DNA of 64,000 nt from Chitinophagales bacterium (GCA_013297745.1 JAAFIM010000007.1:747-64746); one strand, 5' to 3'; counted from the stretch's first letter, positions 26,498-27,160 are shown. Notes: generated by a model from the letters alone, not told the origin. Numbers and translations are program-made.

Positions 26498-26835
26498 AGT
26501 TGTGGGTTTGCAAAATTTTTAAACGGCTTACGCCTAAAATTTTGGTTTATTACTTTTTTGGTGGCAAAAAAGTAACCAAAAAAGCCAACGCCAACGGCGA
26601 AGCCCTCCCGTAAGGAAAAAAGGCGTTTCCTTCGGGAGCGCTTCGCGGTGTTGCTTATATTTTTTTCAAAAATAAGCGCAAAACCGTCGTTCGCCGCGCC
26701 GAAGTTGAGATTTTTACAAAATCTCAATCTGCATCACTCGCTTTGCTCGTTCGTTCGGCTGCTCCGACATACGCTGGTTTTTGGCGTCGCACGGCGAAAA
26801 TTTAGCTTTTGCTTAACTTGGTGATATTTTTTATC
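26498..26835. repeat. Variant of repeat family 1 (shares the ttttaaacggcttacgcctaaaa end and a 10-bp A/T hairpin; divergent GC-rich core)
   Basis: The start matches family 1. It has the hairpin ttactttttt-ggtggc-aaaaaagtaa and additional palindromes (gagatttttacaaaatctc). Confidence 0.55.
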
Positions 26836-26842
26836 TTGCGAG

Positions 26843-27160
26843 TAATACAGAATTTAAAAAGAAAGTGTGTAATAAAAATATGCCGCGCGAAGCGCGTAAC
26901 TACACCAATCCGTTGAGTTTCTACACTGTCTGAAGTGAGACGGAGCGCAGCGGAGCGAACAAGTTTGTAGAAACAAGGCGTTTTTGGTACTTTTTGCGCC
27001 TGCAAAAAGTACGAAGAAAAAATTTTTTTAGGCGTAAGCCGTTAAAAAAAATTCAAAACACAAGTTTTTGTAACTGATGTCTTTAGTAATTTATACTACT
27101 ATTGCACACTTACTTTTTAAATTCTGTATTATTACACACTCACTTTTTAAATTCAGTATA
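26843..27160. mobile_element. Composite MITE: family 1 copy C (26870..27070) bounded by inverted 30-bp motifs
   Basis: taatacagaatttaaaaagaaagtgtgtaata at 26843..26874. Inverse copies at 27102..27132 and 27131..27160. Confidence 0.65.

Follow-up and report, generated by a model that had tools for sequence, protein, structure and literature searches.

Bacterial MITEs (miniature transposable elements with inverted repeats), such as Correia/NEMIS of Neisseria, are short, non-coding, hairpin-rich sequences located between genes. They present terminal inverted repeats (TIRs) of 25-30 nt and a short A/T target duplication, occur in several copies per genome and differ in presence between strains. 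Repetitive extragenic palindromic (REP) sequences are palindromes of 20-40 nt that possess neither TIRs nor target duplications and are mobilised by RAYT (REP-associated tyrosine transposase). Among insertion sequences (IS), some IS5 subgroups generate duplications of 2-3 bp and members of IS3 and IS30 duplications of 2-4 bp. The eukaryotic PIF/Harbinger elements generate target duplications of 3 bp (PMC2213677), and one account of the Stowaway MITEs of plants describes a preference for clustered insertions (PMC3695323). In Porphyromonas gingivalis, the MITE-like BrickBuilt is made of TIR-bearing leader and tail segments that enclose unrelated repeated DNA; the enclosed DNA is a minisatellite of 23 nt, and the TIRs, of 12 nt, match known ISPg elements (PMC4596501). 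BrickBuilt is strictly intergenic, found in one lineage and devoid of transposase remnants, and its promoter activity was shown experimentally (PMC4596501). Here, we analyzed a repeat-rich intergenic stretch (26498-27160) within 64,000 nt of DNA from a Chitinophagales bacterium (GCA_013297745.1 JAAFIM010000007.1:747-64746; hereafter the window). We conclude that this stretch is probably a cluster of non-autonomous DNA transposons (MITEs), nested and mosaic in its make-up and located between two convergent genes.

Presence and absence in related strains

We compared the window to metagenome contigs of a relative (L001 and L031; JGI sample 3300005989), which were reached via homologues of neighbouring proteins and whose flanking DNA is 92-97% identical to the window. 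The gap that hosts the stretch measures 811 bp in the window, and the same two convergent genes are only 113 bp apart in L001. Window positions 24309-26484 align to L001 2-2183 and positions 27173-29288 align to L001 2173-4288, with an overlap of 11 bp. The sequence and a three-way alignment agree that a block of 688 bp (26485-27172) is missing in L001. The 11-bp sequence ATGAAAAAAAG is found in one copy in L001 (2173-2183) and in two copies in the window (26474-26484 and 27173-27183). Its terminal AAG may be the terminus of the element, so that the duplication measures 8-11 bp. This block is present in one and absent from the other of two close strains, and it was gained or lost recently. An earlier note, made from the sequence alone, had described a composite element with a part bracketed by inverted motifs; the unit that differs between strains is the whole of 26485-27172, with its 11-bp duplication, and not just the TIR-bracketed part.

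A second insertion is missing in L031, where 110 bp separate the bactofilin gene from the caspase-domain gene and the window has 585 bp extra (10181-10765). L031 possesses a single TTA (8837-8839), common to both flanking alignments, which the window duplicates at 10178-10180 and 10766-10768. This insertion served as our reference element:

10178-10768, + strand: TTA, 585-bp element (10181-10765), TTA

The reference element is also missing in L038, a more distant relative whose bactofilin is 86% identical, and a gain in the window lineage is therefore the parsimonious direction of change. An independent assembly that is 99.94% identical (L036; Logan SRR9948925) repeats the junction at 10181, runs 65 nt into the element and stops there. 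Because inverted copies of a 29-30-nt motif bound exactly the DNA missing in L031 and the single TTA becomes duplicated, this motif is shown to be the true TIR of a non-autonomous, non-coding transposon that makes a 3-bp TWA duplication.

The same motif had been described by the earlier note as 30-bp inverted motifs acting as TIRs. That reading stands, since the motifs delimit the indel at 10181-10765, with one correction: the real TIR is 29-30 nt long, and the outermost TWA of the 32-mer given in the note is the target-site duplication. Counted as 32-mers, the copies of the studied stretch lie at 26843-26874 (+), beside a repeat named copy C, and at 27100-27131 (-) and 27129-27160 (-) after it, as the note had seen; the others lie at 10178-10209 (+), 10737-10768 (-) and 21967-21998 (+). 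A search allowing up to three mismatches found five of the six copies, against 0.00 expected (100 shuffles), and a profile built from the six copies recovered all six and nothing besides when run on the window. The TIR reads TACWGAATTTAAAAAGNRAGTGTGYAATA, starting with TAC, and the ends of TIR-type elements can be written as TACWGAATTTAAAAAG...CTTTTTAAATTCWGTA. All six tips are adjoined by TTA or TAA, and the arms at the studied locus are 86-87% complementary. We observed two types of ends: a short one of ~30 nt (10181-10210 and 26846-26875) and a long one that is conserved for ~59-66 nt inward (10703-10765, 21970-22028 and 27070-27128). There are also two TIR subtypes, TACAG...GTAAGTG and TACTG...GTGAGTG; the reference element presents the first at its left end and the second at its right end.

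The window contains three TIR-bearing loci and four to five copies of another repeat, family 1, described below. None of the three TIR-bearing insertions is present in L001 or L031, and one of them (copy B) is found in L034. Across ~17.6 kb of the closest relative, we found zero copies of all three repeat families of the window. Empty sites in related strains and target-site duplications were among the checks that the earlier note had named. The former favour mobility (L001 lacks the 688-bp block and L031 lacks 10181-10765), and the latter were found as TTA/TTA around 10181-10765, as the 11-bp ATGAAAAAAAG around the block and, putatively, as TAA/TAA around element E, which is defined in the next section.

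The interior of the reference element consists of a nested repeat of the third family, family 2 (10230-10496), and of four GC hairpins. These hairpins (10503-10700) have GC stems of a single type (CGYGGGGTTTTAYACCCCRCG) and form two pairs in opposite orientation. Family 2 is ~285 bp long, with 14-nt TIRs GAAGTTGTTTAGTA and several GC hairpins, and its copies are:

1609-1925: family-2 copy, with an extra insert of ~45 nt
4603-4891: family-2 copy
10230-10496: family-2 copy nested in the reference element, with ATTATAA on either side

Composition of the 688-bp block

All the features that the earlier note had described exist in the sequence, within 2 nt of where it had placed them. From left to right, we identified ATGAAAAAAAG, an element X, TAA, a left TIR (L), an 8-nt linker, the family-1 core of copy C, a right-end module with a first TIR copy (R1), a second TIR copy (R2), TAA, TTCAGTATAGT and again ATGAAAAAAAG:

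26474-26484: left 11-bp duplication ATGAAAAAAAG, T-run of the TPR-gene terminator on the + strand
26485-26842, + strand: element X, 358 bp long, a variant resembling family 1
26843-26845: TAA, putative left 3-bp target duplication of E; the same trinucleotide follows R2 (27159-27161)
26846-26875, + strand: left TIR (L) of element E, TACAGAATTTAAAAAGAAAGTGTGTAATAA
26884-27069, + strand: family-1 core, copy C
27070-27128, - strand: long right-end module of ~59 nt, ending in R1 (27099-27128)
27129-27158, - strand: TIR copy R2, abutting R1 directly
27159-27161: TAA, putative right target duplication of E
27159-27172: TAA and tail TTCAGTATAGT
27151-27170: perfect 10-nt tandem ATTCAGTATA, two units, at the tip of R2
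27173-27183: right 11-bp duplication ATGAAAAAAAG

The right part of the block contains a candidate complete TIR element. L and R2 match in subtype and both are flanked by TAA, which makes E, the 313 bp between TAA and TAA (26846-27158), the best candidate, with R2 as its probable true right end. R2 and the right TIR of the reference element share 100% identity, and the right-end module resembles 10703-10768 (80% over 66 nt). Of the two inverse motifs listed in the earlier note, the left TIR appears to pair with the outer R2 and not with the inner R1, as judged from TAA/TAA and from the subtype. Inside E, the core of copy C is 94% identical to positions 390-578 of family-1 copy A, 91% identical to copy B and 86% identical to copy D. 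This core is devoid of the ~30-nt AAGTAAGTAGAC... terminus at its left and of the other family-1 terminus at its right.

Family 1 comprises four copies (A-D) that are 86-97% identical. Besides copy C, these are:

356-632, + strand: copy A, with both ~30-nt termini, AAGTAAGTAGAC... / ...GTCTAATTACTT
21967-22248, + strand: copy B, made of TAA, a TIR-type end (21970-22028), a family-1 core and an intact AAGTAAGTAGAC-type terminus
55755-56008, - strand: copy D, whose terminus is short and which lacks a direct repeat at its flanks

The two family-1 termini, as seen in copies A and D, are inverted relative to each other and carry two AAGTAAK sub-repeats apiece. A direct repeat of 14 bp, AATAACTAACAACT, lies on either side of copy A, and the predicted fold of this copy pairs its termini (z = -6.07), as expected of a MITE. 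The position of copy B holds a PIN/VapC gene next to its antitoxin in relatives (L031, L032 and L033), and a diverged copy B is found in L034 at the same site as in the window. In copy D, the conserved central AGGCGTAAGCCGTT segment (55798-55814) is inverted relative to copies A, B and C. The flanks of this segment are A/T-rich and inverted, and the change is a loop inversion of the same type as the one described below for the TPR-gene terminator, here within a repeat.

Copies B and C share more than their core. Indeed, positions 26949-27133 and 21965-22149 form an inverted repeat of 185 nt (94%) which includes the junction between the core and the right-end module. Because this junction is identical in both copies, the fusion of the right-end module to family 1 is itself a repeated unit. 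The sequence therefore points to E being a mosaic MITE, whose interior would be a truncated family-1 MITE fused to the right end of a TIR element. The earlier note had proposed a composite element around a passenger, and its mobile nature is borne out, but the passenger would be this truncated MITE, in a mosaic common to copy B, instead of captured cargo.

The left part of the block, X, begins like family 1 and then departs from it, as the earlier note had reported for 26498-26835. Its head (26496-26586), with an A/T hairpin and the motif TTTAAACGGCTTACGCCTAAAA, shares 77-79% identity with the AACGGCTTACGCCT end of family 1; this motif has five matches in the window against 0 expected. At its left tip, X reads (AAG)TATCTTTTTGC, which is similar to AAGTAATTTTTACGC, the short terminus of copy D. 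Its interior (26587-26842) is rich in hairpins, has a G+C content of 47% and possesses no second copy in the window. We infer that X is a diverged family-1-type element. The predicted RNA fold of X has a z-score of -4.6, and there is a direct similarity within the block between TATCTTTTTGCAAAG at 26485 and TATCTTGCGAG at 26832. We also considered the interior of X as a diverged family-1 body and did not retain this assignment: the alignment is marginal and restricted to the CGCGC-hairpin end (score of 29 against 19.7 +/- 3.2 for shuffles, and reached by 5 of 300 shuffles), and it was kept as a hint.

Finally, the block presents no credible open reading frame (ORF), E being 313 bp, X 358 bp and their sister element 585 bp long. 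The ORFs that overlap the studied stretch have no Pfam match at E<=1, and a 10-nt indel among the family-1 copies disrupts ORFs across the matching part of family 1 in copy B. This agrees with the earlier note, which had seen no plausible coding ORF there.

Origin of the block and rival readings

The elements of the block would have been moved in trans by a transposase encoded elsewhere in the genome that would bind the TIRs and cut with a 3-nt stagger at TWA, and which is probably a DDE enzyme. E would have originated from the fusion of a family-1 element with a TIR element, whether through insertion and deletion or through recombination. Copy B would then be a sibling of the E mosaic, with the identical junction between TIR end and family 1 and a family-1 terminus at its other end. 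X would be a family-1-type element whose enzyme may produce long duplications (14 bp at copy A, 8-11 bp here). Under this scenario, the block would have been built by successive insertions of elements into each other, where it now lies or at a donor locus before moving as a whole.

Several observations weigh against this scenario. No inverted repeats were found at the outer ends of the 688-bp block, which read TATCTTTTTGC... and ...TTCAGTATAGT, and the 11-bp duplication of the block differs from the 3-bp duplication of the TIR family, so that at least one step involved a different mechanism. About 37 nt of the block (26820-26842 and 27159-27172) lie outside every recognised element. The change at 26485 is not polarised between a gain here and a precise loss in L001, because the next relative (L002/L004, 82% identical) has another downstream gene. 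Within the block, the right TIR is doubled, with R1 and R2 in direct order, which the scenario does not account for. The TAA/TAA around E represents just 3 nt in A+T-rich DNA, which would occur by chance in ~2% of cases, and the 10-nt tandem at the tip of R2 makes the original right flank ambiguous. No relative was found whose site is empty for just one of E and X, which makes any order of events a matter of inference. We found no autonomous partner IS with matching TIRs and no transposase domain in the substantial ORFs of the 64-kb window (Pfam; gene-like ORFs of >=110 aa). Finally, the internal arrangement of the block is known from one assembly.

The first four of these observations can be accommodated by a different history, in which the block arrived in a single step that was not TIR-directed transposition: an insertion mediated by microhomology or by repair, a gene conversion that drew on another locus or a transfer out of another strain. 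The unassigned ~37 nt indeed look like donor flank that was carried over. Alternatively, the block would be ancestral and L001 would have lost it by deletion between the 11-bp repeats, which would then not be a duplication made by a transposase. A perfect flanking target duplication is, however, the classic outcome of staggered-cut integration. In addition, copy A has its 14-bp direct repeat, so X could have been inserted first by a family-1-type enzyme that cuts with a long stagger, and the left tip of X resembles a family-1 terminus. We regard such a history as rather unlikely; it touches the last step alone and leaves the identity of the parts unchanged.

The reliance on one assembly raises the question of repeat-induced misjoining, especially for the R1-R2 tandem and for the adjacency of X and E. 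The window appears to come from a metagenome-assembled contig whose organism is uncultured, contigs built from short reads of the same strain (L036 and L034) break within the repeats, and no second assembly spans the block. The outer junctions are nonetheless clean, and a misassembly would not create the perfect 11-bp target duplication found there, which makes an artefact unlikely at these junctions, and less so at the internal R1-R2 and X-E joins. L036 also reproduces the junction of the sister element at 99.94% identity. Moreover, a contig of 1579 bp from another JGI sample (3300059473) encodes a neighbouring protein that is 99% identical to that of the window, and its gene call is open to the contig end, ~108 nt into X. 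An empty site would stop the frame of this gene call three codons beyond the junction. The gene calls of this contig fit the filled state at 26485 and indirectly support it in a second assembly. Overall, we consider an assembly artefact very improbable.

We then searched databases for similar sequences. The TIR pattern had 0 matches in GTDB species genomes, the family-1 hairpin pattern had 0 matches in viral contigs, BLAST of the block against plasmids and phages returned no match, and a literature search for the motif strings returned nothing relevant. Two sets of matches were discarded. The single match of the TIR pattern in JGI metagenomes lies in dense, non-repetitive DNA, has no second copy and looks like chance. 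The family-1 motif AACGGCTTACGCCTRAAA gave 25 single matches in genomes, which are taxonomically scattered, have unlike flanks and are also attributed to chance. All the repeat families look confined to this lineage, because they were not found in the GTDB, JGI metagenome, viral, plasmid and phage collections.

Family 1 and X might instead be structured small RNA genes, or a cis-regulatory RNA or terminator module, in which case the 30-nt motifs would be incidental. This would be in line with the predicted folds, which are strong (copy A, z = -6.07; X, z = -4.6), with the CGCGC hairpin (5-bp GC) which in one orientation is followed by a T-run like a terminator, and with the conservation of AACGGCTTACGCCT even in the 77% variant. 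Two of the four copies also have C-G in place of T-A at one stem pair, and at two pairs C-G is replaced by U-G. Yet a single pair out of 61 is compensatory, and the four copies are nearly identical, their variation being too low for a covariation test. Rfam returned nothing close to the gathering score for 26300-27300, even at E<=10, and only two tRNAs at gathering scores for the whole window. The Bacteroidota -7 box, TAnnTTTG, occurs once per element, which is not above the density of the window (~2 per kb), so we make no promoter claim. The copies also occur in both orientations relative to neighbouring genes, they possess terminal inverted repeats and differ in presence between strains, copy D carries their conserved segment in inverted form, a change that an RNA motif would not readily accept, and the family was not found outside the lineage. 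These results make an RNA function an improbable explanation of the repeats.

A related idea combines both aspects. The family-1 core is modelled as a conserved, strongly folding unit of ~190 nt, with a AACGGCTTACGCCT hairpin that may flip its orientation and a terminator-like 3' hairpin. It is conceivable, albeit quite doubtful, that this core is a functional RNA/DNA module that travels as mobile cargo and is cross-mobilised by two unrelated transposases, instead of junk in decay. On that speculative view, there would be two kinds of termini, AAGTAAGTAGAC-type with duplications of 8-14 bp and TACWGAATTT-type with duplications of 3 bp.

The least probable of the explanations that we considered, which we hold to be extremely unlikely, is that the 30-nt motifs are protein-binding or recombination sites (operators, or Xer/integron-like sites) around exchangeable cassettes. 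Its appeal comes from the different interiors found between the motifs, family 2 and hairpins at 10181-10765 and family 1 at 26846-27158, and from a sigma-70-like hexamer pair (TACACA-18 nt-TATAAT) that overlaps R2. The motifs, however, are present or absent jointly with the interior, as is a 3-bp target duplication, and Pfam scans of the window ORFs revealed no recombinase or integrase gene near them. To our knowledge, the primary promoters of Bacteroidota are not of the sigma-70 consensus type, and sigma-70-type matches in the TIRs were set aside as irrelevant to this phylum. The motifs do not form a CRISPR (clustered regularly interspaced short palindromic repeats) array either: the sole direct pair (R1 and R2) abuts without a spacer, the other copies are inverted and dispersed, and no cas domains were found in Pfam scans of the window ORFs. 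A nested cluster of MITEs remains our preferred reading of the block.

Genomic setting and comparison with described systems

The window represents chromosomal DNA of an uncultured and probably Saprospiraceae-like member of Bacteroidota, with type IX secretion system (T9SS) sorting domains, the housekeeping genes sucA, priA and glnS and a G+C content of ~40%, and the closest named homologues of its proteins are found in metagenome-assembled genomes of Saprospiraceae. The neighbours of the block are:

25974-26408, + strand: DUF5606/DUF6852 gene, left neighbour
27220-29235, - strand: TPR gene (671 aa), right neighbour
26424-26455 and 27179-27214: terminator hairpins, one per flanking gene

The block lies just beyond the terminators of both neighbours and is probably selectively neutral. 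The TPR-gene terminator itself (window 27179-27214, L001 2179-2214) has identical stems in both strains, with a 6-nt loop that is reverse-complemented (TAAGTT in the window, AACTTA in L001), a small hairpin-loop inversion. Downstream of the DUF5606 gene, L002 (4880-5100) and also L004 possess a different palindromic, MITE-like element of ~200 bp, and the lineage seems generally prone to MITE-like insertions.

Gene content also differs between these strains. An AAA_21/AbiEii-like ATPase gene and an ORF of 237 aa (window 18866-21098) are both missing in L031, and the 414-aa STAS/DUF4325/HATPase-like gene of the window (29289-30529) is replaced by a DUF559 gene in L001. Conflict- or defence-type genes are located near the repeats, encoding an Ntox23 toxin-domain protein (630-1580), a caspase-domain protein (7694-10153) and a pair of GmrSD and AAA_15/AAA_21 ATPase (12164-15624). 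The window further encodes (30756-33245, + strand) a protein of 829 aa that matches the shoulder domain of the major vault protein (PF11978, E = 1.2e-29) and, more weakly and slightly under the Pfam cut-off, a vault repeat domain; it represents a homologue, in bacteria, of one component of the eukaryotic vault.

Other repeats of the window are of different kinds. An ORF of 890 aa (61092-63764) contains seven tandem copies of the 18-nt unit CAAAATACAACCAACGGG (61935-62096), and the intergenic gap at 57468-57593 contains five copies of the 21-nt unit TTGCAAGACAACGCGCCAACT. Two identical tRNA genes (53940-54014 and 54079-54153) are located 139 bp from each other. A/C-rich repeats of the ACTAACAACTAA type are located directly upstream of several start codons in the window and in relatives, and may be a leader or translation-initiation motif; one such array hosts the insertion of family-1 copy A. 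They were found at:

319-361, 591-633, 21885-21915 and 57590-57631: ACTAACAACTAA-type repeats of the window
L038 3190-3250: ACTAACAACTAA-type repeat of the relative

The repeats described here are previously undescribed MITE families of a well-known kind, and they leave our understanding of transposons unchanged. They mark recent genome change between co-occurring strains: one copy is located at the site of the PIN toxin gene of relatives, and another lies 25 nt upstream of the start codon of the caspase-domain gene. In practice, these elements break short-read assemblies and gene callers can misread them as ORFs. Their mosaic ends and two duplication lengths could also help show which transposases cross-mobilise which elements.

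When compared to known systems, the elements of the window share the general MITE traits of Correia/NEMIS, but they present no sequence similarity to them, their duplication is TWA (3 bp) and not TA, and their termini are a mixture of two families. They resemble REP sequences and the bacterial interspersed mosaic elements (BIMEs) in being intergenic, hairpin-forming repeats clustered next to terminators, whereas they possess TIRs and a 3-bp duplication, are 300-600 bp long and lie in a window without a RAYT gene. The 3-bp TTA/TAA duplications (10178/10766 and 26843/27159), the TIR-bounded ends and the existence of MITE derivatives recall IS5 and PIF/Harbinger. No assignment to an IS family is justified, however, because no transposase was found in the window and the duplications of IS3 and IS30 overlap with these lengths. 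The insertion of elements into or beside one another, which yields composite blocks in gene-poor gaps, is reminiscent of Stowaway as far as that account describes it, although Stowaway is eukaryotic with TA duplications and the outer 11-bp duplication found here goes beyond simple nesting. Among published elements of the phylum, BrickBuilt is the closest analogue; it is likewise intergenic and lineage-limited and has a trapped passenger. Relative to BrickBuilt, the interior of the element described here is another MITE family, its TIRs are longer (29-30 nt) and no matching IS is known.

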